A stretch of 64,000 nt of DNA from Candidatus Falkowbacteria bacterium (GCA_043798985.1 JAZDOE010000003.1:7917-71916); one strand, 5' to 3'. Shown: positions 131-38,350, numbered from the stretch's first letter. Numbers and translations: made by a program. Notes: generated from the letters alone by a model not told the origin.

Positions 131-268
131 AGCACGAAGCATGAATATCGAAATCCGAAACCCTCCATAGGCGGGCAGGCAAGCACGAAGCACGAATTTC
201 CCAATATTGAAACATTCTGATTTCGAATTTGTTTCGAATTTCGGATTTCTAATTTCTAATTTTCCCCT
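131..268. repeat. AT-rich conserved leader module, copy A (core gaatttcccaatattgaaacattctgatttcgaattt)
   Basis: Near-identical modules at 23300-23427 and 27187-27314, each ending immediately 5' of an ATG. Contains the palindrome AATRTTnAAACATT. Confidence 0.7.
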
Positions 269-269
269 T

Positions 270-2129
270 ATGGATATCAGTCAAATGCAACAATTAAAGG
301 ACAAAGCCGTTGCGCAGCAAACGCCAGCGCCAAAAGTTGATTCAACCACTGAACCAAAGTTAACGCCAGGGCAGGAAAAAGAACTTTTGGAGCAAGAAAA
401 AGTTTATCGGCATGGAGTAAGCACGATATTGGATTTGATCGCGCCATCAGCGTTTGAAGTGACGCCGTCGTTTGTCAAAATCGGCGGAAAATATTGCCGC
501 ACATTGTTTGTCATGACTTATCCGCGCTACATCAGCGTTGGCTGGTTCGCGCCGATTATTAATTACAACGCCATGCTGGATATTGGAATGTTTTTTTATC
601 CTTTGGAATCGCGGTTAGTGTTGGAGCAACTGAAAAAGAAAGTTGGCATTTTGCGCGCGCAGCTAACGATGGACGCGGAAAAGGGCGCGCCGCGCGATCC
701 AATGCGCGAGATAGCGTTGCAGGATATTGAAAAATTGCGCGACGACATTACGCAGGGCACGGAAAAGTTTTTTCAATTTTCATTGTATGTCACGTTTTAC
801 GCCAATTCCGAAGCAGCGCTTGATAAATTGACCGAAGACTTGGAAGCTGTTTTTGGATCGCGCGCGGTTTTTACGAAACGCGTGCTTTATCAGGCAGAGC
901 AGGGTTTTAATTCAACAATCCCGATTGGCAATGACGAGCTCATGATTTCTTCCAACTTGAATTCTTCGCCGATCGCGTCTTCTTTTCCGTTTATTTCAGC
1001 TGATTTAACGTCAGACGATGGCGTTCTTTACGGCGTTAATCGGCATAATAATAGTCTGATTATCTTTGATCGTTTTTCTTTGCAAAATGCCAATACCGTC
1101 GTGTTCGCGACTTCTGGCGCTGGTAAAAGCTATGCGATTAAACTTGAAGTTTTGCGGACAATGATGCTTGGCACGGATTTTCTTATTATTGATCCTGAGC
1201 GCGAATATAAAAATTTGTGCGATGCTGTTGGCGGAACTTATGTAAATATTTCGCTGAACTCTGAAACAAAAATAAATCCGTTTGATTTGCCGCGGGCTAT
1301 TGGTGAAGATACCAGCGCGGAGGATATTATTCGCAGCGCTGTCATTACCGTTAAGGGTTTGATTCGCTTGATGGTTGGCGCGATTACTTACGAAGAAGAT
1401 TCTATTTTGGATCAGGCATTACTTGCGACTTATGCGAAAAAAGATATTACGCCTGATGCTGATTTGTCAAAGATTGAGGCGCCATTGATGCAGGATTTTT
1501 ACGAAGTTTTGCAGGGAATGGCTGGTGGCGCGGCTTTGGCGCTACGGCTGAAAAAGTTTGTTGATGGAACATTCTCGGGCTTATTTAATTCGCCGACCAA
1601 TGTTGATGTTGAGAATCAGCTGGTGGCATTCAGCGTACGCGATTTGGAAGATGAGCTGCGACCCTTGGCAATTTATAATGTTGTAAATTACATTTGGAAT
1701 ATCGTGCGATCAAAAATGAAAAAACGTATTTTGGTCATTGATGAGGCGTGGTGGTTGCTGCAGCATGATGATTCCGCGAAATTTATTTTCGCGCTGGTGA
1801 AACGCTGTCGTAAATATTATTTGGGAGTGACAACGATTTCGCAGGATGTGAACGACTTTTTAACTTCTCCTTATGGCAAGGCGATCGTCACAAATTCTTC
1901 TTTGCAGATTTTATTAAAACAGTCGCCAGCCGCGATTGATTTGATACAAAAAACATTCATGCTTACCGAAGGCGAAAAATATTTATTGTTAGAATCTGGC
2001 GTTGGCGAAGGAATATTTTTTGCAGGACAAAAACGCGCGGCAATTCGCATTGTCGCGTCTCCGCAGGAAGATAAATTAATCACTTCTGATCCGCGACAAT
2101 TGCTGGCAATGGAAGAGGAAGAAAAATAA
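270..2129 (+). CDS. VirB4/TrbE-like conjugative transfer (type IV secretion) ATPase
   Basis: Walker A 'ATSGAGKSYAIK' and Walker B 'ILVIDEAWWLL' in a ~620-aa protein with VirB4/TraC-like architecture. The track ORF starts at 207 inside a repeat element; ATG at 270 chosen by analogy with the positions of the two other repeat copies. Confidence 0.7.
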   Translation: MDISQMQQLKDKAVAQQTPAPKVDSTTEPKLTPGQEKELLEQEKVYRHGVSTILDLIAPSAFEVTPSFVKIGGKYCRTLFVMTYPRYISVGWFAPIINYNAMLDIGMFFYPLESRLVLEQLKKKVGILRAQLTMDAEKGAPRDPMREIALQDIEKLRDDITQGTEKFFQFSLYVTFYANSEAALDKLTEDLEAVFGSRAVFTKRVLYQAEQGFNSTIPIGNDELMISSNLNSSPIASSFPFISADLTSDDGVLYGVNRHNNSLIIFDRFSLQNANTVVFATSGAGKSYAIKLEVLRTMMLGTDFLIIDPEREYKNLCDAVGGTYVNISLNSETKINPFDLPRAIGEDTSAEDIIRSAVITVKGLIRLMVGAITYEEDSILDQALLATYAKKDITPDADLSKIEAPLMQDFYEVLQGMAGGAALALRLKKFVDGTFSGLFNSPTNVDVENQLVAFSVRDLEDELRPLAIYNVVNYIWNIVRSKMKKRILVIDEAWWLLQHDDSAKFIFALVKRCRKYYLGVTTISQDVNDFLTSPYGKAIVTNSSLQILLKQSPAAIDLIQKTFMLTEGEKYLLLESGVGEGIFFAGQKRAAIRIVASPQEDKLITSDPRQLLAMEEEEK

Positions 2130-2130
2130 T

Positions 2131-2724
2131 ATGGAAAAAAAACAAAAAATTATCATTCTGCTCGTTGGTATTGTTGTGTTCGCGTTGATTATTGGTTGGA
2201 TTGTTTGGGATGTTTGGGGAAATAAAAATGAGATTTCAGCGCCAGCCGCGCAAGTAAAAGAAGCTGTGCTATTAACAACGCCATCCACGCAAACAACAAC
2301 GCCCGCGCAAGTTGTTATCGCGGATAAACAAGAGCAACAATCAATGCAAGCGCAGGTTTTGGCAAAAGTTTTCGCTGAAAAATTCGGCACTTTTTCCAAT
2401 CATGAAAATTATGCCAGTTTGGAAAAGTTGAAAAACATGATGACCACCAGTACGGCAAAGTGGTTTAATGATTATATTACTGATTTGAAGAAAAAATATG
2501 GCAATGAATTTGCGACATACTATGGCGTGACAACTACTGCTGTGAATGCTAATGTGCTTGAAGCGAGTGAAACCAAAATGATATTGCTTGTTGATTGTCA
2601 ACGCAAAGAATCAATGGGAATCGCGCCAATCATTGAGTATAATCAAAGTTTAAAATTGAACTTGGTAAAAATAAACAATGAATGGAAAATTGACGGCGTT
2701 TTTTGGCAAAATAAAGAAGCTTAG
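2131..2724 (+). CDS. hypothetical membrane protein (N-terminal TM), translationally coupled to the VirB4-like gene
   Basis: ORF; hydrophobic N-terminus 'IIILLVGIVVFALIIGWIVW'; start 1 nt after the VirB4-like gene stop. Confidence 0.4.
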   Translation: MEKKQKIIILLVGIVVFALIIGWIVWDVWGNKNEISAPAAQVKEAVLLTTPSTQTTTPAQVVIADKQEQQSMQAQVLAKVFAEKFGTFSNHENYASLEKLKNMMTTSTAKWFNDYITDLKKKYGNEFATYYGVTTTAVNANVLEASETKMILLVDCQRKESMGIAPIIEYNQSLKLNLVKINNEWKIDGVFWQNKEA

Positions 2725-3409
2725 CCTGAAAATCTGGGCGAGTTTGTTTCCCAAAGAATGTTTGGGTTGTGGCAAAGAAGATGTTTATTGTTGCGACCAG
2801 TGTGTAAGTAAAATGAAGATGAGCGCGCTAAATATTTGTTTTTTGTGTAATAAAAAGGCTACTGGGCTTGGAATATGTGAAGGTTGCGCTGAAATTTCAG
2901 GCGTGGACGCACTCATTGTTGCCACGAATTATAAAGACACATTGGCGGAAAAATTGATAAAGCATTTGAAATACGATTTTGTCGTGGAGTTGGTTCAACC
3001 GCTGGTCAGTTTGTTGAAACAAAAAATAGAGACAATGGAGGCGCGCCAGTTTTTTAGCGGAGCATTGTTAATTCCTGTTCCATTGCATCGTCGCCGTTTT
3101 TTATCACGAGGGTTTAATCAGTCGGAGATTATCGCGAAAGAATTGGTCAGCGCGTATGGCTGTGAGTTAAAAACAGACGTAGTAAAAAGAACAAAAGCAA
3201 CGAAAAAGCAATTTGGATTGTCGCGGGAAGCGAGGCAAAAAAATATTCAGGGAGCGTTTACCATTGTAAAACCAGAGTTGGTTAAAGGAAGAAAAATAAT
3301 TATAATTGATGATGTGCTGACAACAGGAGCCACGCTAAGCGAGCTGGCAAAAATTTTGAAAAAATGCGGGGCAATAAAAGTCGTTGGCGCGGCAATCGCG
3401 CATGAATAG
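2678..3409 (+). CDS. comFC: ComF-family phosphoribosyltransferase (competence protein ComFC-like)
   Basis: N-terminal CxxC...CxxC zinc finger plus C-terminal PRTase motif 'IIIIDDVLTTGATL'. Confidence 0.65.
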   Translation: MNGKLTAFFGKIKKLSLKIWASLFPKECLGCGKEDVYCCDQCVSKMKMSALNICFLCNKKATGLGICEGCAEISGVDALIVATNYKDTLAEKLIKHLKYDFVVELVQPLVSLLKQKIETMEARQFFSGALLIPVPLHRRRFLSRGFNQSEIIAKELVSAYGCELKTDVVKRTKATKKQFGLSREARQKNIQGAFTIVKPELVKGRKIIIIDDVLTTGATLSELAKILKKCGAIKVVGAAIAHE

Positions 3410-15342: not shown

Positions 15343-15705
15343 ATGACGAAGAGAGTGAGGGGAAAGTTCGTAAAGGAAGCGGAGTATTGTTGCGGCTGCC
15401 ATATGCGCGTGGCGCCGCAGGATCCGCGTCGCGTTCAGCTGGACGACGGTGCGCCGGCGCACAGGACTTGTCTCGGCAAGACGCTCTCACGGGCAGTAGA
15501 GATGAAAATGCCGGTGCAGGACCTCAAGCCGTTGTGTGAGGCAGTGCGCCGTAGCGTGGGCGAGTCTGCGTACGGCAAGTTGTTTGAGCGCGAAGTCCAG
15601 CCGGTGCTGATGGATCAGCGGCGTGAAGAGCAGTTCGCGCAGATAGCGCAGTTGCGTCGCGAGCGGCGACCGCAGGCCGCCAGAAAAGCTGGCGCCATGG
15701 CGTGA
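15343..15705 (+). CDS. GC-rich hypothetical protein with Cys/His cluster (CCGCH...H..C); foreign-looking cassette
   Basis: TTGACA-17-TACACT promoter and GAAGGAGGG RBS upstream, hairpin terminator downstream; GC far above backbone. Confidence 0.45.
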   Translation: MTKRVRGKFVKEAEYCCGCHMRVAPQDPRRVQLDDGAPAHRTCLGKTLSRAVEMKMPVQDLKPLCEAVRRSVGESAYGKLFEREVQPVLMDQRREEQFAQIAQLRRERRPQAARKAGAMA

Positions 15706-17085: not shown

Positions 17086-18501
17086 TTATTTTATCGCGAC
17101 TGGACAATTTCCTCCTGGTTCCGCTTGGAACAAATTTGTCACTCCATATTTGTCCATTATTCTTTCTTTTCCTGCTTTGCGAACCGAGGCTGCTTTGCCT
17201 TTGCCATATTGGAGTCCTCCTATCGCTGCTTCCTGCAACGTCTTATAATAGCCTCCTGTCCAGTCGCTTGGTTGATAACCACCGTCTTTTGGAGTGCAAA
17301 CAGTTTTTCCTATATCAAACGCCTTTTCTTTGCAACGTTTTATAATTAGGGTCTGCCATGACAGCGCGAGTCCATTTTCAATATTTTCTCCGCCCTGGCA
17401 TCCCCCTTTATTTAAGGTGCTTGTTAGGTTGTCTATCCCGCTGTTATGATAAAGGTAAAGCAACGTTGCCATATCAGGATCAGATAAATTTTTTGTGCCG
17501 GCGCAATTGCTTTCTATTATTTTTTTTGCACTTAATATTGCCTTAGTTATGCCAGCAGTTTGTAAATTAACATCAAAAAGTCTAGGATCGTTTTCAACAA
17601 GCTCGCCGGTAGCCAAGCCCAATTCTGAAAAATAATAATTCATTTTTTTCACGTCTTTCTCCCCCCCCAAAGTTCCTTCTATGGATGATTTTTTAAATTG
17701 GAACAATCCTCCAAAACAAGAGCAGTTGACTACGTATGGTTGAAAGCTGGATTCGTAGTCAGCGATCCCCATTAATATTTTCCAGTTGAAATTTCCGCAA
17801 GCGGCGAAATTTCTGAATGTCTGTTCAAAGTTTCCCGGAGGAATGGAAGTGCTGTTTGTTTGTATTCCGCAATGTTTTAAAACAGATTCGTGACCAGCTC
17901 CGCAAGTGCCGTCAGAATTTGCCGCTTCATCTTTGCCGAATAAAATATCGTCCATTGTCACTCTTTTTACTAATTCCATGTTGAAGGATTTTAGTTTTGT
18001 AAGTTCTGGATTTATAAAGTATAAAATAAGATATGCCGATAGAAGAATGATTAAGCCGCTGATGCTGCCAAGAATAGTTTTTTTGCTTTTTTCAACCCAA
18101 GATTTATTAAGACCGCTTAGCATGTAGAAAAACCCGCCGATAATCAGCAAAAGAGTGGCAAAAACCGCGCCGATAATTAGGGCATATTTATAAATCGCAA
18201 GCAGATATTCAGCGATCCACGGAATATCAATTGATTGTGGCTCGCCTTGGTCGTTTTTAGTTATTGTTGCGTTTGAAAACTGGGGGAGCGTTGGACTTGG
18301 TATATTTAACTTTGGAGATTGTGGAGCGCCTGCGTTTTCGCCTTCTGATGCGATTATTTTTGCAAAATTCGGAAGCGTTGGGATCGGTATATTTAACTTT
18401 GGTCCTTCTATGATTTCTGTGCTAGTTGTTTGGGCAAATGCAAATAACGGAAAGAGCATTAGTATTAAGTTAAGTAGTAAAAATAATTTACGCATAACCA
18501 T
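17086..18501 (-). CDS. lytic transglycosylase (SLT domain) fused to a VirB2-like N-terminal membrane module
   Basis: SLT catalytic region 'ILMGIADYESSFQPYVV...GLFQF'. The N-terminal ~170 aa (signal peptide, IPIPTLP repeats, two TM helices) are paralogous to the N-terminus of the 18963-20237 product. Confidence 0.6.
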   Translation of the reverse strand: MVMRKLFLLLNLILMLFPLFAFAQTTSTEIIEGPKLNIPIPTLPNFAKIIASEGENAGAPQSPKLNIPSPTLPQFSNATITKNDQGEPQSIDIPWIAEYLLAIYKYALIIGAVFATLLLIIGGFFYMLSGLNKSWVEKSKKTILGSISGLIILLSAYLILYFINPELTKLKSFNMELVKRVTMDDILFGKDEAANSDGTCGAGHESVLKHCGIQTNSTSIPPGNFEQTFRNFAACGNFNWKILMGIADYESSFQPYVVNCSCFGGLFQFKKSSIEGTLGGEKDVKKMNYYFSELGLATGELVENDPRLFDVNLQTAGITKAILSAKKIIESNCAGTKNLSDPDMATLLYLYHNSGIDNLTSTLNKGGCQGGENIENGLALSWQTLIIKRCKEKAFDIGKTVCTPKDGGYQPSDWTGGYYKTLQEAAIGGLQYGKGKAASVRKAGKERIMDKYGVTNLFQAEPGGNCPVAIK

Positions 18502-18513
18502 TAGCCGTTGTTG

Positions 18514-18927
18514 TTATTTACAATCTCCTTTGGTAAATGTATAGCCGCCAGCTTCAGCGGACGCCACTCCTTGGCAGTCCATTTCTGTTAGAGCTGGAAG
18601 GGAAAGACCATTGTCTAGCAAACAACATCCGGTAGCTTCTTTTTCCGCTTGCGAGATTATGTCATCGCCAACTTTTCCACCGAATGCTTTATAAAATTCT
18701 GCTTCTGCGTTCGGCGCGGTTGATGGCACAGAGCTATAATAACTTTGAACGAGCGATAAGAAATGATTCCAGTCAAAAGCCGCGCCAGGATCACCGTGCG
18801 TATTATCTTGAACGTCAGCATGACCAACAATTCCAGGGCCTAAATCCCAGCAAACGCCCTCCTGACTCCAACTTGGACAATTTTGTGCCGGCGGAGACGT
18901 TGAGACTGCGCGCCGCATTTGGAGCAC
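18514..18927 (-). CDS. hypothetical secreted Cys-rich protein (possible amidase or LAS-like fragment)
   Basis: 'HADVQDNTHGDPGAAFDW' metal-site-like motif. C-terminal GCC...D...C.G...C motif shared with the 18963-20237 product; apparent GTG start. Confidence 0.3.
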   Translation of the reverse strand: MLQMRRAVSTSPPAQNCPSWSQEGVCWDLGPGIVGHADVQDNTHGDPGAAFDWNHFLSLVQSYYSSVPSTAPNAEAEFYKAFGGKVGDDIISQAEKEATGCCLLDNGLSLPALTEMDCQGVASAEAGGYTFTKGDCK

Positions 18928-18962
18928 GAGTGAACGATTGTGTTTTTTTGCATGTTTTTTTA

Positions 18963-20237
18963 TTAGCTACACGCACCTTGTTTCCATATTGGTAGATTGA
19001 TGGCGTCTAATCCTTCACAAAATTGAACGGTTGAATCTGGAATCACTGTCCCATCTACTGTCGTGCAACACCCTATAGCGTTTGGATCTGCTGTCGGCAC
19101 AACGCCTTCTTCGCACGCGCCGTTCCATTCAAAGTGCATTGGATCATAATAATTTTTCCATCCACCACCCCATATAAAATTATGTTTTTGGAAAATGTTA
19201 ATCACCCATGCTGGGATATTCGTTGGGATTGGCTGCCCATTGTTGTAGTCTTTGCATTCTGTGTCATAAGTTCCATCCTTTAGTTTTGAGCAAGCTGGGT
19301 TTTGACACGTTGCAATGTCAACAGCAACTGCAAACCTGTGGGGAGATGGTTTCCATTGGCCCGTTTTATTTGATATGCAAGTTTCTTTTGGACATTCTGT
19401 TTCGGGGCAGCTCGCAACGCAGCGCCACACATATATCCATGGACGTTGTTTGTCTGATTTGTTAGAGAGTTTTTTGCCATTTGCCGCGGGCGCATTACAC
19501 GGCGCATACACAATTTTTTCAAATTCCGGCCAGCGCGAGTCAGTCATTATTTCATTGCTGATTGCTTGAAAAATTGGTTTTACTACCTTTGCACATCCGC
19601 CAGTGTTATTATTTCCAAGGAAAGGGCACGAACTGTCTATGATAGCGGACATTTCAGATTTTGATTGTTTAACAACTTGATTCCAGCACGGGCCATGTTT
19701 TGTTTGGGAAATCCATTGTTGAAAGGGTTGGTCGTCAAAGATAACAGGTTCGCTTTTGACCATTGCGAGACGCAAGCTTTTTAATTTTGTGAGCTCTGGG
19801 TTGATTATGTACAAAAGCAAATAAGCGGCAAGAAGAATGATTAAGCCGCTAAGGCTGCCAAGAATAGTTTTTTTGCTTTTTTCAACCCAAGATTTATTAA
19901 CCCCGCTTGTCATGTAAAAAAAACCGCCGATGATTACCAAAAGCGTAGCGAACACCGCGCCAATAATCAGGGCGTATTTGTAAATCGCGATTAGATATTC
20001 AGCAATCCACGGAATATCAATTGATTGCGGCTCGCCGGCCGCGTTTGTTGTGATTGTTGCTTTTGAAAAACTGGGAAGTGTTGGAATCGGTATGTTTAAT
20101 GCCGGTCCTTCAACTGGATCAACGTTGGCTGGAGCTGTCCCTGTTGTTGGCCCCGCCAACGGTGGGGCGGTTTGGGCAAACGCGAAAATAGGATATAATA
20201 ATAAAATTAAGCTGGTAAGCAATAATAATTTGCGCAT
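18963..20237 (-). CDS. LAS-family (peptidase M15-like) zinc cell-wall peptidase fused to a VirB2-like N-terminal membrane module
   Basis: 'HRFAVAVDIA' and 'DPMHFEW' resemble the H-x-x-x-x-x-x-D / H-x-H-hydrophobic zinc motifs of M15/LAS peptidases; N-terminal 170 aa paralogous to the 17086-18501 product. Confidence 0.5.
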   Translation of the reverse strand: MRKLLLLTSLILLLYPIFAFAQTAPPLAGPTTGTAPANVDPVEGPALNIPIPTLPSFSKATITTNAAGEPQSIDIPWIAEYLIAIYKYALIIGAVFATLLVIIGGFFYMTSGVNKSWVEKSKKTILGSLSGLIILLAAYLLLYIINPELTKLKSLRLAMVKSEPVIFDDQPFQQWISQTKHGPCWNQVVKQSKSEMSAIIDSSCPFLGNNNTGGCAKVVKPIFQAISNEIMTDSRWPEFEKIVYAPCNAPAANGKKLSNKSDKQRPWIYVWRCVASCPETECPKETCISNKTGQWKPSPHRFAVAVDIATCQNPACSKLKDGTYDTECKDYNNGQPIPTNIPAWVINIFQKHNFIWGGGWKNYYDPMHFEWNGACEEGVVPTADPNAIGCCTTVDGTVIPDSTVQFCEGLDAINLPIWKQGACS

Positions 20238-21501: not shown

Positions 21502-21773
21502 AAAAAGTAAAATTATTTTTATTTTTAAGGTAGTATTTCTTTTATTTTTTCAAGAAACACAACGACTAAAATTACTACAAACAAAATAAGCGCCACTGGC
21601 AAGCACGAACCAATTGAGCAACAACATCCGCTAATCGCTGGAATGATTGCTCTTTTTGCGACTTTTTTCGCGATCTTGCTGACTTTTTTTGCAGAGCTAC
21701 TATGTTGGTTGTTGTCGTTTGATAATGGATTGATTGCCATGATATTAATTTTATCACATTTGGGCGTGAATTG

Positions 21774-22658
21774 CTAAATCATGTCGCGCAAAGCTTTAAC
21801 GCGCTGTTCAATTGGTGGGTGAGTGGAAAAAAGAGAACTAAGAATTCTTTTGCTGGAAAAATATGGGCTGGCAAAAAATAAATGCGCGGTCGCGTTGCTG
21901 AATCGTTGCATTGGTTGTTTATATTGGCTGATTTTTTCAAGAGCGCGCGCTAATCCTTCTGGGTATCTTGTTAAAAGCGCGCCAGATGCGTCGGCTAAAA
22001 ATTCTCGTTTGCGGGAAATCGCAAGTTGAATCAATTGTCCGATAATCGGTGAAAGTATTATTAAAATAATTCCGACAATCGCTAAAATGCCGCCGCTATT
22101 TTTATTATTGTTCAGCCGTCGTCCGCCGAACAAAAAACTGCGCGTGAACATGTCCGCGATAATTGACAACGCGCCAACTAAAACAACAACCAGCGTCGCC
22201 AGACGGACATCATAATTTTTTACGTGCGAAAGTTCGTGCGCGATAACGCCTTCCAATTCTTCATTTTCCATTATCTGAATTAGCCCGGTTGTTATCGCGA
22301 TTGACGAGTGTTCTGGGTTGCGGCCGGTTGCAAACGCGTTTGGCGCGGGATCATTGATTATATAAACTTTTGGCGTTTGCAATCCGGCCGCGATGCAAAG
22401 ATTTTCAACTATTCGGTAAACATAAGGATTTTCTTCTTTGCTGATTGATTTTGCGCCAGCGGAAACCAGCGCGATTTTATCGCCGGCAAAGTAGCTGATT
22501 CCTACCATGAACATTGAAATTACAACAGCAACAACCAAGGGCGAATATCCATAATTCAAAACGCGCGACAAAATATAACCAATTCCAGCAATTAAAATGA
22601 AGAATATAAAAATCAAAAATATTGATTTGCGTTTGTTTGAATCAATTTGGGAATACAT
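21774..22658 (-). CDS. htpX: zinc metalloprotease HtpX (M48)
   Basis: 'HELSHVKNYD' HExxH motif, four TM helices; start trimmed to MYSQ to avoid overlap with lemA. Confidence 0.8.
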   Translation of the reverse strand: MYSQIDSNKRKSIFLIFIFFILIAGIGYILSRVLNYGYSPLVVAVVISMFMVGISYFAGDKIALVSAGAKSISKEENPYVYRIVENLCIAAGLQTPKVYIINDPAPNAFATGRNPEHSSIAITTGLIQIMENEELEGVIAHELSHVKNYDVRLATLVVVLVGALSIIADMFTRSFLFGGRRLNNNKNSGGILAIVGIILIILSPIIGQLIQLAISRKREFLADASGALLTRYPEGLARALEKISQYKQPMQRFSNATAHLFFASPYFSSKRILSSLFSTHPPIEQRVKALRDMI

Positions 22659-22659
22659 A

Positions 22660-23232
22660 CTAGAATTTAACGGCGACCGGTTGTTTTTCTGATTCTTCCG
22701 CGGCAAAGAAATCAAATTTGGCGAATCCGAAGATGGCGGCGATTATGTTGCTTGGAAAAGTTTCTCGTTTGATGTTAAAATCACGAACATTCCCGTTATA
22801 AAATCTGCGGGCGGCCTGGATTTTATTTTCCGTGTCAGAAAGTTCGTCCTGCAATTTTGCAAAATTGGTTGACGCTTTCAAATCCGGATACGCTTCGGCT
22901 ACCGCGAACAAAGATTTTAAAGTCGCGGAAAGCATGTTTTCAGCGTTTTCAATTTGTTTTTTGTCTCCAGATGCTTCGGCGTTCATTGCTGACGCGCGGG
23001 CGATTGTCACTTTTTCAAAAAGTTCTTTTTCGTGCGCCGCATAACCTTTCACCGTTTCCAATAAATTTGGAATAAGGTCGTACCTACGTTTGAGCTGGAC
23101 GTCAATATCTGACCAAGCTTCTTGCGCGCGATTGCGCAAACGGATGAATCCGTTGAATACAACGATGAGCCAAAAGATGATTACCGCGACAACCGCGATA
23201 ATAATCCAAACAAACGTTGGGATTGTGTTCAT
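22660..23232 (-). CDS. lemA: LemA family protein
   Basis: N-terminal TM plus 'AWSDIDVQLKRRYDLIPNLLETVKGYAAHEKELFEKVT' LemA signature; classic LemA-HtpX pair. Confidence 0.8.
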   Translation of the reverse strand: MNTIPTFVWIIIAVVAVIIFWLIVVFNGFIRLRNRAQEAWSDIDVQLKRRYDLIPNLLETVKGYAAHEKELFEKVTIARASAMNAEASGDKKQIENAENMLSATLKSLFAVAEAYPDLKASTNFAKLQDELSDTENKIQAARRFYNGNVRDFNIKRETFPSNIIAAIFGFAKFDFFAAEESEKQPVAVKF

Positions 23233-27316: not shown

Positions 27317-28015
27317 ATGGCCAAGATATTACAATTTCGACCAGCAGAGCAATTTACCCCGCCAATGGCGGGACCGCAAACTGAAAAACGCGAAAACGCG
27401 CTGGATTTTAAAATTTGGTTGCAAAAATTTGATGAATTGAAAAATTATTGGTCAGCGCAACAGGACGATTTTTTGGCAAAACGAGAAGATCGCGATGTTT
27501 ATGATATTGAAGAAGAAGGCGTGGCAATTGGCGCGGAAACGCAGGTTTTGCGGGATTTTCAAGATTTTTTAGTGCGCAACTTTATAGAAAAGCGCGTGCC
27601 ATTGATTGAAGTTGATGGTGATGATTTTAAAAAAATTGAAGGTGGTGAAAAATTGATTCAACACTTGCGCGTAGCAGGTTATGACTTTGAAAAGCTAATG
27701 AAATATTGGCAAGGCAAATATAACAAATATCGTTTGAATTGGTCTAGTTCGGTTTTTGGGGAAGCGCAATTGTTTTTAGATGTTATTAAAGATGAAAAAG
27801 AGAAAGCAAAAATTGAAAGAGAATTGTTTGGTTTGATGGCGCGGATGAAAATGGTTTATAAAATGGAGATTGATGGTGTTGATGAGACAACCCGCGCGAT
27901 TGCAATGAAAGAGCGCGAGCTGTTGCTCGGGGCAGTTGATGATTTTTTGGAAGATTTGATGGAATATTGTCGCGCTAATTTAGTTGGCGCAAGCAGTCGT
28001 CGGAACGCCGGTTGA
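27317..28015 (+). CDS. hypothetical protein (acidic, helical)
   Basis: ORF in frame with track ORF 27179; start placed after the repeat by analogy with copies A and B. Confidence 0.35.
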   Translation: MAKILQFRPAEQFTPPMAGPQTEKRENALDFKIWLQKFDELKNYWSAQQDDFLAKREDRDVYDIEEEGVAIGAETQVLRDFQDFLVRNFIEKRVPLIEVDGDDFKKIEGGEKLIQHLRVAGYDFEKLMKYWQGKYNKYRLNWSSSVFGEAQLFLDVIKDEKEKAKIERELFGLMARMKMVYKMEIDGVDETTRAIAMKERELLLGAVDDFLEDLMEYCRANLVGASSRRNAG

Positions 28016-28594
28016 TTGATTAACCCAAAAACTGATTGAGCCGCCGCAGGGACCGGCAAACGGATCGTCTAGAGGATATCCGTATTTTTTTATTTCAAAA
28101 TGCAAATGCGGACCAGTTGATTTTCCGGAATTTCCGGTTTTTCCGATTTTTGCGCCGCACAAAAGCGACTGATACCATGGCACAGTTCCTTTTGTCATAT
28201 GACCATAAATTGTAATTTCGCCAATGCCATCTGTCATGTTGTTTTCGTGATCTATTTTAACGTAATTGCCATAGCCACTGCCGCACGTGCTGGTCCAACT
28301 TCCTTGGTCAGGACAATTGTCATAGCGATAATAAAGTCCGCCTTTTGCCGCGGAATATATTTGCGTTCCTTTCGCCGCAAGAAAATCTGTTCCTTTGTGG
28401 CCATTGTAAGTTAAATTTGCACTGCAATAATAATTTTTCAAGCCGGCCGCTTTATCATTGTCATAGTAGGCGCTGAATACAGCGCCGATTGTTGTATTTA
28501 GCGGCCGGCGGAGTTTTACAAATGCGGCGTTGGTTGTTGAGCAGGCGACGCACATAAGAGCGATCATGATTGTGATGAAAAGTTTGTGGAACAT
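27980..28594 (-). CDS. M23 family peptidase (LytM-like)
   Basis: 'GHKGTDFLAAKGTQIYSAAKG' and 'GNSGKSTGPHLHFEI' zinc-site motifs; signal peptide. Confidence 0.8.
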   Translation of the reverse strand: MFHKLFITIMIALMCVACSTTNAAFVKLRRPLNTTIGAVFSAYYDNDKAAGLKNYYCSANLTYNGHKGTDFLAAKGTQIYSAAKGGLYYRYDNCPDQGSWTSTCGSGYGNYVKIDHENNMTDGIGEITIYGHMTKGTVPWYQSLLCGAKIGKTGNSGKSTGPHLHFEIKKYGYPLDDPFAGPCGGSISFWVNQSTGVPTTACAN

Positions 28595-28667: not shown

Positions 28668-29027
28668 TTATTTTTGTTTTGTTATTGCGGAAAATATTAA
28701 TGTTAATTCATGCGCTTCCTGCCAAAGCTTTCTGCCCGCATCTTTGTTTGTGGGATTTTCTATTGCGATAATATGCAGCCAATACATCGTTTCCTTAGAT
28801 TCTTTTTTGCAGATGCCGAGTTTGTGATAGAAATCTTTTTTGGATTCTGCCCCGTCTGCTTCGGCGTAATTCGCGCCAATGCTCGTTGCCGATCGGATCA
28901 ATTGTTTTGTCATAATTTCATTGGCCGCAGTCTTTACGAGGTTTTTAACAAAATTAATGACATCGCAGCTAAACGCAGTTGTGCGCGAAGCAAGATTATA
29001 TTTTGGTTTGAGCTCAGTATTTGTCAT
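28668..29027 (-). CDS. four-helix-bundle protein (23S rRNA intervening-sequence protein family)
   Basis: 'LIRSATSIGANYAEADGAESKKDFYHKLGICKKESKETMYWLHII' family signature; flanked by inverted 'ttcaaatatcaaat' repeats (28595-28667 and 29028-29072). Confidence 0.8.
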   Translation of the reverse strand: MTNTELKPKYNLASRTTAFSCDVINFVKNLVKTAANEIMTKQLIRSATSIGANYAEADGAESKKDFYHKLGICKKESKETMYWLHIIAIENPTNKDAGRKLWQEAHELTLIFSAITKQK

Positions 29028-29072: not shown

Positions 29073-30053
29073 TTATTGCACGAGGTTTCCATTTACATCA
29101 ACATTAATAATATTTTTCGGGCTGGTGTTTGTTAAAATGCTGATAATTTTTCCATCTTGATTCCATGTTGGCGACTTGCCAAAAGAAATTCGCTGGCTGC
29201 GCAAGATTGAATTTAAATCTGCCGCAAATTCTAATAACCAAATTTCATTGTCCGATTCAAAAATTAGATATTTGCCATTTGGCGACCAGCTAGGTTGCTC
29301 GGTTGGTATTGGCACAGTAGTGTTTGTCACGAATTTTTGGCCAAGGTTTGTTAATTGTTTGCGGTTATTGCTGGTTGTATCAACTATAAAGAACGAAGCA
29401 AGCCCTTCTGGGCTCAAAGAATTAAAAATAATTTTTGTTGCTTTGGGAGAAAAAATCGGCGCAAAGTCTTCAGGGCTGTTTGTTATTTGTCGCTCTTTGT
29501 TGGTTGTAAGGTTAAAAATGAAAATGCCGCGGCTGTTTTCAAAATAATCATTTGATTGCCAATTGTCAGCAAGCTTTTGATACGTTAAAAATTTCTCGTC
29601 AGCGGAAATTGTTGGCGACATTACTTTGTCCGCGATCGTGGCAATGTTTGCGCCATCAAAACTCATGCTGAACAATTTTGCTTCATTTGTTAAATAAAAT
29701 ATTTTTTGCGAACGTAAGGCGATGAGGGCGTCAATAACATTTTTGTCGTTGATAAGTTGTTTGTGAATTGTTGCCTGTTTGTTTATTAACCAAAGATCTC
29801 CACTGCCGATGGCTTCGCTTGCCGTAAGTTGTTCTTTGATTGTTTCCGCGTAGACCGCAAAATCGTCCTGTTGATCATAAAGGCGCGCGGCAATATTTGC
29901 CGCGACTGTTTGCTGATTATCCGCGTTGATTAACATTAGAGAGTTGTTTGCGAGAGAAAAAAGCGCGGCGGCAGACTGTTTGGGCGTAATAAAAAATTGA
30001 ACCGCGAGAATAATGGCGACCGCAAGAAGCAGGGGAAGTAAGATTTTGCGCAT
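29073..30053 (-). CDS. PD40/TolB-like beta-propeller periplasmic protein
   Basis: 'QPSWSPNGKYLIFESDNEIWLLEF' PD40-like repeats, N-terminal TM/signal. Confidence 0.45.
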   Translation of the reverse strand: MRKILLPLLLAVAIILAVQFFITPKQSAAALFSLANNSLMLINADNQQTVAANIAARLYDQQDDFAVYAETIKEQLTASEAIGSGDLWLINKQATIHKQLINDKNVIDALIALRSQKIFYLTNEAKLFSMSFDGANIATIADKVMSPTISADEKFLTYQKLADNWQSNDYFENSRGIFIFNLTTNKERQITNSPEDFAPIFSPKATKIIFNSLSPEGLASFFIVDTTSNNRKQLTNLGQKFVTNTTVPIPTEQPSWSPNGKYLIFESDNEIWLLEFAADLNSILRSQRISFGKSPTWNQDGKIISILTNTSPKNIINVDVNGNLVQ

Positions 30054-30143: not shown

Positions 30144-30494
30144 TTAGAATTTTTTTTGTTCGTTCGTTGTGGCAGTTCTGACTATTTTACTGAATATTAG
30201 CGTTAACTCTTGTGCCTCTTGCCATAATCGGCGCAATGCTTCTTTTTCTTGAGGATAGTACTCTGCAATCATGCGGAGCCAATGTTTCGTTTCCTGCGTT
30301 TCTTTTTTTGCGATGTATATTTTGTTTTTGAAATCTTTTTTCGAACTTGCCCCATTGGCTTCCATATAATTTGCACCGATGCTAGTTGCTGCGCGTATAA
30401 GTTGGATGATCAAAGGTTTAGACAACGGGGAAAGCGCTAGTCGTTTTGAAAACTTAATTATCGCAATGCCAAAATTGGCAGTACGCTCTTCCAA
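30144..30494 (-). CDS. four-helix-bundle protein (23S rRNA IVS protein family), second copy
   Basis: 'LIRAATSIGANYMEANGASSKKDFKNKIYIAKKETQETKHWLRMI'. Confidence 0.75.
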   Translation of the reverse strand: MEERTANFGIAIIKFSKRLALSPLSKPLIIQLIRAATSIGANYMEANGASSKKDFKNKIYIAKKETQETKHWLRMIAEYYPQEKEALRRLWQEAQELTLIFSKIVRTATTNEQKKF

Positions 30495-32303: not shown

Positions 32304-33104
32304 ATGGTCGTGATTTATTATATTATTGTTTTTGTTTTCGGATTGTGCGTGGGTAGTTTTTTGAATGTTGTAATTGAGCGCACTTTGCGCGACGAATCAA
32401 TTGTTTTTCGCGCGTCACATTGCCTGATGTGTGATAAAAAAATCAAGTGGTATGACCTTTGTCCATTGATAAGCTATTTATTCTTAAGATGCAAATGCCG
32501 GCAGTGCGGCGCGAAAATTTCTTTACAATATCCATTGGTTGAATTATTCACCGGACTTTTTGCAATGCTGTGCGTTTATGGATATCTTGGTTCATTTTCA
32601 ACGTTATTGAACAACGAAGTTTTTTGGCTGCTGAATTTTTTCATTTGCTGTGTGTTAGTGGTTATTTTCACGTCAGATATTCGCTATTATCTAATTCTTG
32701 ATGAAGTAATGATTCCCGGAATTTTTTTCGTGTTTTTTGTCAAATTGTGGCTGGGCTATGAAAACAACATATTGTTGCACGAATTAAAATATTTGTTGGT
32801 TTCCGGCGCGATCGGATTCTTGTTCTTTGGCGTGCAATATTGGTTGTCCAGCGGAAAATGGATTGGCGGAGGTGACATGCGCTTGGGCGCGTTCATGGGC
32901 GTGGCATTGGGCTGGCAAAAATTGCTGGCAGCTTTGGCAATCGGCTATATTATCGGCGCGATTGTGGCAGTAATATTGTTGCTAAAAAAACAGACGTCGT
33001 GGAAAAGCAAATTGCCGCTGGGCGTTTTTTTGTCATCAAGCTCAATAATCGCACTGTTTTGGGGAGAGAAAATTATTGAATGGTATTTGACAATATTGAA
33101 ATAA
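32304..33104 (+). CDS. pilD: prepilin peptidase (A24 family, PilD-like)
   Basis: 'GLCVGSFLNVVIERT', zinc-binding CxxC...CxxC, multiple TM helices, 'GGGDMRLGAFMG' with catalytic D. Confidence 0.85.
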   Translation: MVVIYYIIVFVFGLCVGSFLNVVIERTLRDESIVFRASHCLMCDKKIKWYDLCPLISYLFLRCKCRQCGAKISLQYPLVELFTGLFAMLCVYGYLGSFSTLLNNEVFWLLNFFICCVLVVIFTSDIRYYLILDEVMIPGIFFVFFVKLWLGYENNILLHELKYLLVSGAIGFLFFGVQYWLSSGKWIGGGDMRLGAFMGVALGWQKLLAALAIGYIIGAIVAVILLLKKQTSWKSKLPLGVFLSSSSIIALFWGEKIIEWYLTILK

Positions 33105-33223
33105 TTTTGAATTTCGAATTTTTAATTTTGAATCAAGGTTTAATGTCTGAATGTTTGAATGTTTCAAAATTCAGATTTTAAAATTCAATCAAAATTCGAG
33201 CTTCAAAATTCAAAATTTTAACT
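33104..33223. repeat. AT-rich palindromic upstream module (pilin-type copy D) with ctgaatgtttgaatgtttcaaaattcag
   Basis: Related copies at 34384-34463 and 35040-35153, each directly 5' of a pilin gene. Confidence 0.65.
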
Positions 33224-33727
33224 ATGTCTCGTGGATTTACAATTATTGAATTGTTGGTTTCAATGGCGATTATTGTTGTATTAACAACAATGGTGACGAT
33301 CGCGTTTGGTTATAATCAACAACATAAAGTGTTGGTCGCGAATGGCCAGGGTTTTTTGAATGTTTTGAAAGAAACGCAAACAAAAGCCTTGTCAGGCATT
33401 AAAGATCCTGCCACAAAAATTATGCCGGCTGGCGGATATGGAGTGCGCATTAACGCGACTCAATATTTTGTGTTCGCGGATAGCAATTCTAACGCGAAGC
33501 TGGACATTGGCGAAACATTGGCGACTGGTAATCTTGAAAAAAACATTCAGTTCAAAGTTCCGCAAAGCGACATTGTTTTTTTGCCATACAAAACAATTGA
33601 TTCGGTTTGTTGGAATACTGTGTGCGCTGATGCTGTTGTCAAGATTATTTCACTTGAACAAACGCAGACAAAAGAAACATATTCAATTTATTTGGATCAA
33701 AAAATCGGAAAAATTTGGGCGGAATAG
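33224..33727 (+). CDS. type IV pilin (prepilin-type N-terminal cleavage/methylation domain)
   Basis: 'MSRGFTIIELLVSMAIIVVL' class III signal. Confidence 0.75.
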   Translation: MSRGFTIIELLVSMAIIVVLTTMVTIAFGYNQQHKVLVANGQGFLNVLKETQTKALSGIKDPATKIMPAGGYGVRINATQYFVFADSNSNAKLDIGETLATGNLEKNIQFKVPQSDIVFLPYKTIDSVCWNTVCADAVVKIISLEQTQTKETYSIYLDQKIGKIWAE

Positions 33728-33798
33728 GTCTGTTGCGAAGGGATTCCTCACCCTTTTCAAGGGTTCGGAATGACATGCACAGCGATTCATGCGTAATT

Positions 33799-34383
33799 AT
33801 GAATAATCAAAAAGGCCAGACAATTATTGAGGCAGTTGTGGCAATCGCAGTGATCAGCTTGGCGATGCTGGGCTTTTTGTCGCAGGCAACGAGCAATTTT
33901 GTGATGGGCCGAACGAGTGAAAATCATTTTATCGCGTATAATTTGGCGAGCGAGGCGATTGAAGTAAGCCGAAACGTGCGCGATTCAAATTGGCTAAAAG
34001 GTTGTATTGATCCGGCTGTTCCTGCGAAATGTTTTTTGTGGAATAGCGGGCTGGCAAATGGTACTGATTATTCGGCTGTGTTGAATTTTAACGCAACAAC
34101 CGGCAATTGGTTATTGGATTTCTCGCCAAAAGATTTAGCAACGTGCGGAGGGGCGTGTTTGGCTGGCGACAAAACAAAATTTTCGCGCATGGTTTTTTTA
34201 CAACCTGTTTGCAAAGACAAATTTGATTGCCTTGCCGATGGCGGGGTAAACGGGATTTGCGGTGATGGAGAAAAGTGCGCTGGCGAGCAAATTGGAATTA
34301 AAGTGACAGCACAAGTTGGCTGGAGCGAGGCAAGCGGGCTGAAAACGTACGAAGCAACGGAATATTTGTATAATTGGAAGTAG
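33799..34383 (+). CDS. pilin-like / pseudopilin protein
   Basis: 'MNNQKGQTIIEAVVAIAVISLAML' prepilin-like N-terminus. Track ORF 33715 begins inside a repeat element; start trimmed to 33799 (in frame). Confidence 0.55.
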   Translation: MNNQKGQTIIEAVVAIAVISLAMLGFLSQATSNFVMGRTSENHFIAYNLASEAIEVSRNVRDSNWLKGCIDPAVPAKCFLWNSGLANGTDYSAVLNFNATTGNWLLDFSPKDLATCGGACLAGDKTKFSRMVFLQPVCKDKFDCLADGGVNGICGDGEKCAGEQIGIKVTAQVGWSEASGLKTYEATEYLYNWK

Positions 34384-34463
34384 AAAATTTTGAATTTCTA
34401 ATTTTGAATTTTGATTGAATGTTGAATGATTGAATGTTTTAAAATTCGAAATTGACAATAGGT

Positions 34464-35039
34464 ATGGTTGACTCAACGGGACAGCGTGGGTTTTCTTTAA
34501 TAGAATTGCTCGTGGCAATGGCGGTTTTTTTGACTGTTTTGTTGGTTGCCACTGATATTTTTGTTTCTGTTTCTCGGCGCGAGCAACAAACACTTATACA
34601 ACAGCGAGCGCTGAACGAGTTGCGCTATGACCTTTACTTTTTAACGCAACAAGCAAAAATCAATCAGATAAATTATGAAATGTATCCGGAAAAGTTAAAC
34701 ATTGTTGAAACACAATTGTTTTTGCAGGATAAAAATGAAAAAGTGATAATTTTCAAATTATCTGACCAAAGTTGCGTTGCCGGCGTGAAAAAATGTTTGC
34801 TTTATTTTAAGGAGGGCGTTGGCTGGAAAACTTTGTCGTCAACCGCAGTTGATTTTGATTTTATGAAATTTTACATAACGCCAAATAAAAATCCGTTTGA
34901 TTTGGACAAGACGACTGGAAAGTACGCGGCAGATGATCAGCCGAAGGTGACAATTGTTGCGCAGGCGTTTGCGCCGGGCCAGCCGGACAGAAAAATAAAT
35001 TTACAGACAACCATAAGCGGGAGGATATATGGGAGATAA
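34464..35039 (+). CDS. type IV pilin-like protein
   Basis: 'QRGFSLIELLVAMAVFLTVLLVA' class III signal. Confidence 0.65.
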   Translation: MVDSTGQRGFSLIELLVAMAVFLTVLLVATDIFVSVSRREQQTLIQQRALNELRYDLYFLTQQAKINQINYEMYPEKLNIVETQLFLQDKNEKVIIFKLSDQSCVAGVKKCLLYFKEGVGWKTLSSTAVDFDFMKFYITPNKNPFDLDKTTGKYAADDQPKVTIVAQAFAPGQPDRKINLQTTISGRIYGR

Positions 35040-35153
35040 ATTTTGAATTTTGAATTTCGAATTTTGAATCAAATCTGAATGTTTTAATTTTGAAACATTC
35101 AATCATTCAACATTCAATCAAAATTCAAAATTCTAATTTCAAAATTATTTAAT

Positions 35154-35894
35154 ATGTCTGATCAGCAAGGAAATGTCTTGGTTTATACAGTGCTCGCGGT
35201 CGCGGCAATCTTGAGTACTATTTTGATTGTGTCAAATTTGATGATTGGCGAAATTCGGCAAGCTGGAAATTTTGACAACATGATTAAAGCAACGTACGCG
35301 GCTGAAAGCGGGGCAGAATGGGGAATTTTTAATTTGCGCAAAAATAATATTATGATTGAGAGCGATTGCGACATGCCAGACGTTGATTGTTATGCTGGAG
35401 TAGATGAAACTGGCGTGAAAAAATTGCAATCTGATTTGCCGCAAAACCAGACATTGCAAATTGATTTGTATAATCCGATAAAATTGAACAAGGCTTCTGG
35501 CGTTGAGTCAATGAAAATTGGTTGGTTGGGCGCTGGCTGGGTTGAAGTGACATTGGTTGAATGGCAGGCCGGCAGCCAGGTTGTTTGGAATGACAATGCA
35601 ATGCAAAAATTTTTGTTTAACGCGCCGGCCGTTTTAAATGTTTTTAATAAAAGTAAAAATTATATTGTCCGATTAAAATCTTTAAACGCGCCATTGGCCG
35701 CGTTGTCCGTTGAAATTTTTTCTGGTGACAACGCGGCGGGCGCAGCCCTGCCGTTCCCTCAATTTGTGCGTGTGACTGCCGAGGGAACGGCCAATGGCGC
35801 GTCGCAAATTATCAATGTTGATTTGCCGAAAAAATCCCCGCTCATGGGTTTATTTGATTACGCGTTGTTTAGCGAGGAGGATATTATAAAGTAG
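35154..35894 (+). CDS. pilus-associated hypothetical protein (PilX-like N-terminal helix)
   Basis: Hydrophobic N-terminus 'VLVYTVLAVAAILSTILIV'; follows the pilins. Confidence 0.35.
   Translation: MSDQQGNVLVYTVLAVAAILSTILIVSNLMIGEIRQAGNFDNMIKATYAAESGAEWGIFNLRKNNIMIESDCDMPDVDCYAGVDETGVKKLQSDLPQNQTLQIDLYNPIKLNKASGVESMKIGWLGAGWVEVTLVEWQAGSQVVWNDNAMQKFLFNAPAVLNVFNKSKNYIVRLKSLNAPLAALSVEIFSGDNAAGAALPFPQFVRVTAEGTANGASQIINVDLPKKSPLMGLFDYALFSEEDIIK

Positions 35895-35928: not shown

Positions 35929-38350
<2,422 letters not shown>

Follow-up and report, generated by a model that had tools for sequence, protein, structure and literature searches.

The locus analyzed here has its closest described counterparts in two kinds of system. 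The VirB2-like pilins of Patescibacterial type IV secretion systems (T4SSs), which include those of the SEML1_0006-0019 region of Southlakia epibionticum and the "Sec-secreted array" of TM7x, are encoded in tandem arrays and are associated at the lineage level with virB4 genes of the MPF-FATA type (PMC12102498, PMC10633639). Pfam family PF18895 ("T4SS_pilin") is one of two profiles used to call these pilins; its genes form arrays of 2 to 11 and are found near virB4 in 1,135 of 1,948 assemblies, and those in the T4SS cluster of S. epibionticum are essential (PMC12102498, PMC10633639, PMC12857230). The other kind comprises the VirB1-type hydrolases of monoderm bacteria (PrgK of pCF10, TraG of pIP501, CwlT of ICEBs1, and TcpG), membrane-anchored extracytoplasmic enzymes that cut both glycan (as SLT or muramidase) and peptide and so open the wall for a T4SS, which here too belongs to the MPF-FATA lineage (PMC12102498 and references therein). 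We analyzed a 64,000-nucleotide stretch of DNA from a 72.5-kb contig of a Candidatus Falkowbacteria metagenome-assembled genome (GCA_043798985.1 JAZDOE010000003.1:7917-71916), referred to below as the window, in which an array at positions 17086 to 20237 combines features of both. Two of its genes, A and C, are predicted to encode a PF18895-type membrane module fused to a peptidoglycan hydrolase, and an open reading frame (ORF) between them, ORF B, is the remnant of a third such gene. It is quite possible, if still a little short of probable, that the locus encodes extracytoplasmic peptidoglycan hydrolases that all use this module as a tether to the cytoplasmic membrane, and that the array recombines.

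The proteins of this array share with the Patescibacterial pilins the family PF18895, a signal peptide followed by a two-helix hairpin, and an arrangement in tandem. Described Patescibacterial pilins, however, are regarded as small proteins that stand alone, with highly divergent paralogs (mean identity, 25%; maximum, 54%), whereas the two modules here are 82% identical, each carries a peptidoglycan hydrolase of 250 to 300 aa, and the array lies beside radA, 15 kb from virB4. PrgK, TraG, CwlT, and TcpG have a single N-terminal transmembrane (TM) helix or a lipobox and hold both catalytic domains in one polypeptide, the peptidase being of the CHAP or NlpC/P60 type. In contrast, the array has a pilin-type hairpin as anchor, its activities are assigned to separate genes, its peptidase is of the M15/LAS type (C39-like in relatives), and it lies outside the T4SS operon. 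The canonical pilins VirB2, TrbC, and TraA (PF04956, PF05513) resemble the module in having a cleaved leader, a hydrophobic helix-loop-helix with a short basic loop, and termini predicted to lie outside. They differ in having no enzymatic domain and no detectable sequence or profile similarity to the module, and the head-to-tail cyclization of VirB2 would rule out a fusion at its C-terminus.

Neither the VirB2-like pilin arrays of Patescibacteria nor the VirB1-type hydrolases of monoderms are new in themselves. We found no description in the searchable literature of the fusion between pilin module and hydrolase, or of the chromosomal slot, between a PD40 gene and radA, in which the array sits. 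The fusion is not peculiar to this genome but common, and public databases contain the domain combinations implicitly.

A hairpin module shared by two predicted wall hydrolases

Pairwise alignment of the N-termini of A and C gave 64% identity over 200 aligned residues (E = 2e-57). An ungapped core of 118 aa was 82% identical in protein and 79% identical in DNA, with one exact match of 47 nt. These values bear out an earlier reading made from the DNA alone (the sequence-only reading), which had proposed that the products of 17086-18501 and 18963-20237 have an N-terminal module of ~170 aa in common; a 23-mer that it quoted as about 85% identical between the two proteins is identical at 22 of 23 positions. 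It had named similarity of low complexity only as the result that would overturn its proposal. This explanation is excluded by conserved motifs that are not hydrophobic (PxLxIPIPxL, IPWIAEY, NKSWVEKSKKT, and INPEL) and by the size of the family, for which an exhaustive HMMER search with a module profile returned 13,898 cluster representatives at E <= 1e-3 and 1,954 at E <= 1e-10. Within the window, only A and C carry the module.

The module starts with a Sec-type signal peptide ending in FAFA-QT, followed by a variable spacer, the motif P-x-L-x-I-P-I-P-x-L-x-x-F, and a short predicted β-hairpin. It continues with helix 1 (IPWIAEY...GGFFYM), the Lys-rich loop NKSWVEKSKKT, helix 2 ending in the near-invariant INPEL, and a short strand. 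The signal peptide, which looks cleavable at FAFA-QT, and the two long hydrophobic helices had been noted in the sequence-only reading and were recovered by hydropathy analysis and AlphaFold modeling. In A, the helices were placed at aa 94 to 130 and 134 to 163; in a model of the module alone, they spanned residues 35 to 71 and 74 to 104 with predicted local distance difference test (pLDDT) values above 90. The "IPIPTLP repeats" described earlier are real as a motif, but the motif is single across the family and is duplicated in A only (aa 34 to 46 and 63 to 75, as PKLNIP.PTLP). Because the loop is basic, the positive-inside rule predicts a topology with the N-terminus outside, the loop inside, and the C-terminal domain outside. 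A lipoprotein anchor was ruled out, as no lipobox Cys follows the signal peptide.

Profile matches place the module in the Patescibacterial T4SS-pilin family. The module of A scored 27.2 bits against PF18895, above the cutoff of 26.6, and PF18895 was matched at E <= 1e-3 by 85 of 102 representatives taken from those closest to the module (best E, 1e-27). No homolog came from a word-indexed search with the 98-aa module alone; a seven-sequence module alignment, used for the search for related loci, gave nine genome loci. Neither A (471 aa) nor C (424 aa) has the size of a stand-alone pilin, and a C-terminal extension of at least 150 aa was present in 128 of the 150 closest module representatives. 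Among the 102 close representatives, the heads that could be identified were almost all wall hydrolases, namely VanY/M15, SLT, Amidase_2, C39_2, NlpC/P60, M23, Amidase_5, and SLT_3. Five proteins (P0006, P0010, P0011, P0012, and P0013) have three or four tandem PF18895 hairpins in one polypeptide, and at least one of the five has an SLT head at its end. Covalent linkage would not be expected of "pilins" that are supposedly extracted from the membrane one subunit at a time. Weak matches to NF045849, the pilin-like Mbov_0395 family of a Mycoplasma integrative and conjugative element, were found for a bare module (P0009, E = 0.003) and for the tandem-module protein P0006 (E = 0.018); at 15 to 17 bits, far under the cutoff of 40, they are a lead only. 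Mbov_0395 is likewise a small two-TM protein beside a monoderm VirB4, but one with no enzyme fusion.

Modules group by genome and not by head. Against the 82% identity between A and C, the modules of paralogs within one related locus (L010) are 59 to 65% identical, and those of orthologs with the same head are 54 to 55% identical. Such likeness within a genome suggests homogenization or coevolution with a common partner. Paralogous modules that are more alike than those of same-head orthologs would be expected if all of them must fit one partner.

The head of C matched Peptidase_M15_4 (PF13539) at 54.2 bits (cutoff, 25) over the full length of the profile. Its catalytic motifs are intact, with the zinc ligands H-x6-D and H in SPHRFAVAVD (aa 298 to 307) and DPMHFEW (aa 365 to 371), and aa 345 to 399 gave a local match to the L-Ala-D-Glu peptidase Ply500 (2vo9). 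The assignment of C as a LAS/M15-like zinc peptidase in the sequence-only reading is thereby upheld. For A, which had been called an SLT lytic transglycosylase, the supporting evidence came through relatives of its head. The head alone matched four proteins (P0024, P0108, P0070, and P0042; E = 7e-10 to 8e-6) whose aligned regions are significant Pfam SLT domains (33 to 46 bits). It contains the motifs E250-S251, G265-LFQF, and Y351-HNSG, of which E-S, GLFQF, and YHNSG are invariant in eight orthologs; the full-length orthologs, seven in number, are 42 to 55% identical to A. The top fold match of the full AlphaFold model in Foldseek was the phi6 lytic transglycosylase/lysin (4dqj), a weak match with a probability of 0.82. 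Catalytic motifs are intact in both A and C, which may encode active enzymes. The possibility that either is a phage endolysin with a signal-anchor or holin was rejected, since the surroundings are not those of a phage and relatives keep the same chromosomal slot.

A variable slot upstream of radA and its recombination scar

At least 10 related loci, including every one that could be read, have the same arrangement, in which a PD40 position is followed by one to three PF18895-anchored hydrolase genes, radA, a small gene, and recG. What fills the slot differs among them. The window has an M15 gene, an amidase remnant, and an SLT gene. Its closest relative, L001, in which RadA is 88% identical to that of the window, has M15 alone. 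Amidase_2 occupies the slot in L011 and L012, and C39_2 does so in L008. Combinations are C39_2 with SLT in L020 (Kuenenbacteria) and L021, C39_2 with Amidase_2 in L003, a bare module with Amidase_2 and SLT in L010, and VanY/M15 with an unrecognized head in L004; in L002, Amidase_2 is followed by the contig end. The sequence-only idea that wall-degrading heads are shuffled onto a common stalk thus extends well beyond this genome, with M15/VanY, Amidase_2, SLT, and C39-like heads at one slot. The arrangement is old, because RadA of L003, L004, and L008 is only 47 to 55% identical to that of the window. A PD40 ortholog adjoins the array in eight loci (L001, L002, L003, L004, L008, L011, L012, and L021); in L010 and L020, the position is held by unassigned genes of 415 and 427 aa. 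Since PD40 sits directly upstream of the array wherever the neighbor is identifiable, the propeller may be a functional partner of the hydrolases.

Three adjacent hydrolases had been counted in the sequence-only reading, but only A and C are intact. ORF B lacks a signal peptide, the module, and the N-terminal catalytic half. It corresponds to the last ~129 codons (about 396 to 524) of a gene with a signal peptide, PF18895 module, Amidase_2 head, and Cys-rich tail, the first ~395 codons of which are gone, and it is 54% identical to residues 385 to 523 of P0003. Intact relatives (P0003 and P0008; 522 to 524 aa) match Pfam Amidase_2 at 65 to 67 bits. In ORF B, aa 32 to 62 match residues 150 to 184 of AmpD; the last ~30 residues of the Amidase_2 domain (PF01510) remain, so that only the GH...DPG...FDW zinc-ligand stretch and the Cys tail are kept.

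The sequence at the 5' end of ORF B records its origin. Gene C is followed, immediately after its stop codon, by a relic of 48 nt that corresponds to radA codons 1 to 16 (MQKNTIVHSCSKCGAQ), and the first few codons of ORF B are this relic read out of frame. The relic aligns both with the genuine start of radA at 17084 and with the segment of L001 that runs from the M15 stop through a spacer to radA. Homology to L001 across the end of C, the spacer, and the radA start extends from 18974 to 18906 in the window and stops abruptly; nucleotide homology to the intact amidase gene of L011, at codon ~396, starts at the same point, 18906. The simplest history is that an ancestor with the order PD40-M15-radA received, by recombination, a segment consisting of the 3' part of an amidase gene, an SLT gene, and radA (the order seen in L010), and that this event duplicated the 5' end of radA. 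Alternatively, the junction between the radA and amidase fragments may be an assembly chimera between coexisting strains. A simple internal deletion was rejected as the source of ORF B, because the presence of the radA relic speaks for insertion or recombination. We also rejected a functional small Cys-rich secreted protein, given that the ORF is chimeric and truncated and has no signal peptide.

The sequence-only reading had described ORF B as a third small Cys-rich gene that shares its tail with the M15-like protein. The common tail is real, but what carries it is a recombination scar and not a designed gene. As a pair, the tails of B and C are only weakly alike (27.5% over 40 aa, E ~0.01); the likeness gains weight because the four-Cys pattern G-C-C-x12-13-[ED]-C-x15-18-G-x-C is kept in the orthologs of both. 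This tail of ~36 aa is also present in P0002, P0003, and P0008 and has no Pfam match. It ends proteins with M15 and Amidase_2 heads and not those with SLT heads, and it may form a knob, locked by disulfides, with a binding or regulatory function.

Possible roles of the array and its putative tie to the secretion system

The virB4 gene at the start of the window is genuine, as the sequence-only reading had held; its product matched the CD1110 family (NCBIfam NF045971) at 348 bits, above the cutoff of 325. It is followed, within the region 207-3409, by a gene for a 197-aa protein (2131-2724) with one N-terminal TM helix, and then by that for ComF. The 197-aa protein matched no family and is possibly VirB8/PrgL-like. 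The T4SS core cluster would lie upstream of virB4, off the start of the window; upstream of virB4 in related locus L023 are genes for a Lamin-tail-domain (LTD) protein, three large unassigned proteins, and a PrgI/VirB3-like protein. T4SS loci of the class ABY1 are reported to include comF, recG, and radA (PMC12102498). The window shows this comF...recG-radA synteny, and the distance from the array to virB4 falls within the ±20-coding-sequence interval of the same study. In 79 of 80 related metagenomic virB4 loci, no other module gene was found within 10 kb of virB4; in the exception, L030, a 460-aa protein with the module and a Cys-rich head is encoded three genes past virB4. The PF18895 genes counted "near virB4" in the ABY1 lineage (Falkowbacteria, Kuenenbacteria, and relatives) are therefore probably enzyme fusions. 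Most Patescibacterial virB4 genes have no VirB1 homolog nearby (PMC12102498).

We favor, tentatively and with somewhat less than even confidence, a role for these proteins as membrane-tethered wall hydrolases that serve the T4SS in place of VirB1. The signal peptide would be cut between FAFA and Q, and the two-helix hairpin would insert with its Lys-rich loop in the cytoplasm. Insertion in this orientation would leave the C-terminal enzyme outside the membrane, held at its outer face and at the inner surface of the wall. At this site, the zinc peptidase of C would cut stem peptides and the SLT-type transglycosylase of A would cut glycan strands; the intact form of B in relatives (Amidase_2) would remove stem peptides from the glycan. 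The pilin-type hairpin may direct the enzymes into or next to the T4SS, and they may open the organism's own wall locally, which is the job of VirB1, PrgK, and CwlT. We infer from the domains and their context the enzymatic activity, the coassembly with the T4SS, and the choice of the organism's own rather than a host's wall as the target. A role in host attachment or conjugation, as raised in the sequence-only reading, is likewise inferred.

A number of results weigh against this role. The array lies ~15 kb, or 17 to 19 genes, downstream of virB4 and outside the T4SS core operon, and the interval is filled with housekeeping and division genes (murG, divIC, ftsEX, and an rlpA-like gene). Because of this position, the tie between array and T4SS depends on the family name and on synteny at the level of the lineage. 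The module of C scored 18.7 bits against PF18895, under the cutoff of 26.6, yet it is 82% identical to that of A. In an hhalign comparison, a 117-sequence module alignment and seven plasmid VirB2/TrbC sequences gave a probability of 7% over 16 columns; this reference set was narrow (alphaproteobacterial, with an effective number of sequences [Neff] of 2.4), so remote homology is still possible. Pfam searches gave no module match to PF04956 (VirB2/TrbC) at E <= 1, a profile search of the PDB with the module found no VirB2 or other pilin, and Foldseek with the module model returned generic hairpins and no T4SS pilin, the helical hairpin being a generic fold. The earlier description of the module as VirB2/TrbC-like therefore stands with respect to the PF18895 family and the two-helix topology, while neither direct homology to VirB2 nor descent from it could be shown. 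In the wider family, the majority of heads are unrecognized and a few, such as a GDSL lipase, are unrelated to the wall; because of these, the module may be a general display anchor. The enzymatic side is also less direct for A than for C. The head of A scored 19.2 bits against Pfam SLT (PF01464), under the cutoff of 21.3, over profile positions 10 to 50; its orthologs were likewise below threshold, and PDB sequence searches with A and with a profile of its orthologs gave no SLT match. The SLT domains of its head relatives, the motifs, and the phi6 fold support an assignment of this head as a divergent SLT-type lytic transglycosylase, although by an indirect route.

Some of these points fit an explanation that has nothing to do with secretion, and that we regard as rather unlikely without discounting it. 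In this explanation, the proteins are housekeeping autolysins on an anchor common in the candidate phyla radiation (CPR), and they mature and turn over the organism's own wall as the cell grows and divides; the M15 head, for example, would trim it as a D,D- or L,D-carboxypeptidase. Wall and division genes are indeed among the neighbors (murG, divIC, ftsE/ftsX, an RlpA-like double-psi beta-barrel [DPBB] protein, an M23 lipoprotein, and glmM, together with housekeeping genes), and the array is chromosomal, syntenic, and codirectional with radA, with gaps of 1 to 35 nt. The sheer number of module representatives, many with heads that are unrecognized or not hydrolases, and the failure of hhalign to find direct VirB2 homology would also be as expected. 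Such a role does not account for the statistical tie of PF18895 to virB4 or for its essentiality in the T4SS cluster of S. epibionticum (PMC12102498, PMC10633639), nor for the gene with module and head inside the virB4 operon of L030. Moreover, close relatives differ greatly in the number (one to three) and the heads of their array genes, and the window itself has a broken copy, which would be unusual for core division enzymes. In another explanation, the module could be a true polymerizing pilin, with the fusions built into or capping a T4SS filament and their heads digesting the wall of a host at the contact site. The hairpin has the VirB2/TraA topology, with termini predicted outside and the basic loop inside, and F-pilus structures have the termini of VirB2/TraA pilins facing the pilus exterior. 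The three or four tandem modules before the SLT head in some members suggest that modules pack side by side, the paralogous modules appear to coevolve within a genome, and the glycan, amide, and peptide specificities taken together resemble a lysin set. In addition, pilin arrays are essential for the epibiotic growth of Saccharibacteria (PMC10633639), and proteins with T4SS-pilin domains are among the most highly expressed extracellular proteins of parasitic Patescibacteria (PMC10936435), which we count in favor of a pilin. We nevertheless consider a polymerizing pilin unlikely. A head of 250 to 300 aa on each subunit would be sterically hard to accommodate in a VirB2-type helical filament, no pilus is known to have been seen for any monoderm T4SS, and neither the window nor, in 79 of 80 relatives, the DNA up to 10 kb from virB4 contains a bare pilin gene (L010 has one).

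Rapid turnover of heads at one site behind a constant N-terminal module, with a 5'-truncated fragment directly downstream of a full-length gene, is also what would be seen at a polymorphic-toxin-like antibacterial locus, in which a constant delivery module is combined with exchangeable lytic warheads and orphan 3' cassettes as in Rhs and contact-dependent inhibition (CDI) systems. We judge this highly improbable. Unlike Rhs/CDI loci, the array has no candidate immunity genes between or after the hydrolase genes, and intergenic gaps of 1 to 35 nt leave no room for any. The fragment, which has no complete toxin domain, could not supply a functional head because only a quarter of the amidase domain is kept, and the radA relic that flanks it points to accidental recombination and not to an orphan-cassette design. 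The heads themselves are common hydrolases of the housekeeping type. A bolder version of the polymerizing-pilin explanation, in which ABY1 Patescibacteria build a T4SS-derived filament or stalk of PF18895 subunits with hydrolase heads that drills the wall of host or producer at the contact site, and exchange heads between strains by recombination at the PD40-radA slot, is speculative, and we consider it unlikely.

If the tethered hydrolases do stand in for VirB1, they would bear on how T4SSs work in these organisms. Few machines other than the T4SS have been shown to be indispensable to Patescibacteria living as epibionts, and most T4SS loci have no recognizable VirB1 enzyme; the fusions offer a concrete candidate for the missing wall-opening enzyme in ABY1. 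They suggest a testable model in which an ultrasmall monoderm passes a secretion or uptake device through its wall by means of tethered cutters of glycan, amide, and peptide bonds on a common module, and a changing set of enzymes at one chromosomal spot may explain how T4SSs cross the wall. Counting PF18895 matches as "pilins" mixes structural subunits with enzymes. In the radA scar, an uncultivated CPR genome preserves in its sequence a rare trace of recombinational cassette exchange; the scar lies next to comF, radA, and recG, genes used in natural transformation.

Gene inventory and neighboring features

The array is part of a codirectional, tightly packed run of genes on the minus strand at 15.7 to 23.2 kb of the window (Table 1). 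The gaps are 7 nt between PD40 and C, 35 nt between C and B, 12 nt between B and A, and 1 nt between A and radA. Because the gaps are this short, the run from PD40 to radA is likely cotranscribed; a scan of the tiny intergenic gaps for promoters and terminators gave no usable signal.

Table 1. Features of the array, its flanking genes, and virB4, with positions in the window
Feature	Positions	Strand	Basis or remark
VirB4-like T4SS ATPase, CD1110/MPF-FATA type	207-2129	plus	NCBIfam NF045971, 348 bits; Pfam TraG P-loop
radA, 445 aa	15747-17084	minus	Pfam; downstream neighbor of the array
Gene A, 471 aa	17086-18501	minus	Not found in protein collection
Gene A, divergent SLT-like lytic transglycosylase head (predicted)	~17089-17829	minus	
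Gene A, PF18895-type hairpin module	17962-18315	minus	
Gene A, signal peptide	18430-18501	minus	
ORF B, 137 aa with GTG start (NCBI, 134 aa)	18514-18927	minus	MFH0814645.1, hypothetical
ORF B, four-Cys tail	18517-18630	minus	
radA relic (codons 1-16)	18905-18952	minus	Left half of recombination scar
Gene C, 424 aa	18963-20237	minus	MFH0814646.1, "M15 family metallopeptidase" (NCBI)
Gene C, four-Cys C-terminal tail	18966-19073	minus	
Gene C, Peptidase_M15_4/LAS head	19125-19361	minus	
Gene C, PF18895-type hairpin module	19752-20105	minus	
Gene C, signal peptide	20172-20237	minus	
PD40/TolB-like beta-propeller, TM-anchored, 418 aa	20245-21501	minus	Pfam PD40; NCBIfam TolB propeller, E = 1e-6
71-aa membrane protein	21525-21740	minus	
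HtpX	21774-22715	minus	
LemA	22660-23232	minus	

The product of A was absent from a collection of 15 billion proteins that contains B and C from the same NCBI contig. The gene is an intact ORF of 471 codons with known full-length orthologs, and the deposited record may lack its annotation or treat it as a pseudogene.

A type IV pilus operon, which the sequence-only reading had placed in this genome, was not borne out in the window, which holds only a prepilin peptidase and three pilin-like genes. PilB, PilC, and PilT are not in it, and the region 32304-35894 is a minor type IV pilin cluster, where the prepilin peptidase (A24) is followed by three genes whose products have N-terminal methylation motifs and by another, unassigned gene.

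Between recG and radA, the segment 15281-15745 is GC-rich and holds a Cys-containing ORF of 120 aa (15343-15705) that has no family assignment and is conserved, with orthologs in L001 and L011. A second PD40 protein (29073-30053) adjoins the M23 lipoprotein (27980-28594). Paralogs of the PF05635 four-helix-bundle/23S rRNA intervening-sequence protein are encoded at 28668-29027, 30144-30494, and 35929-36282.

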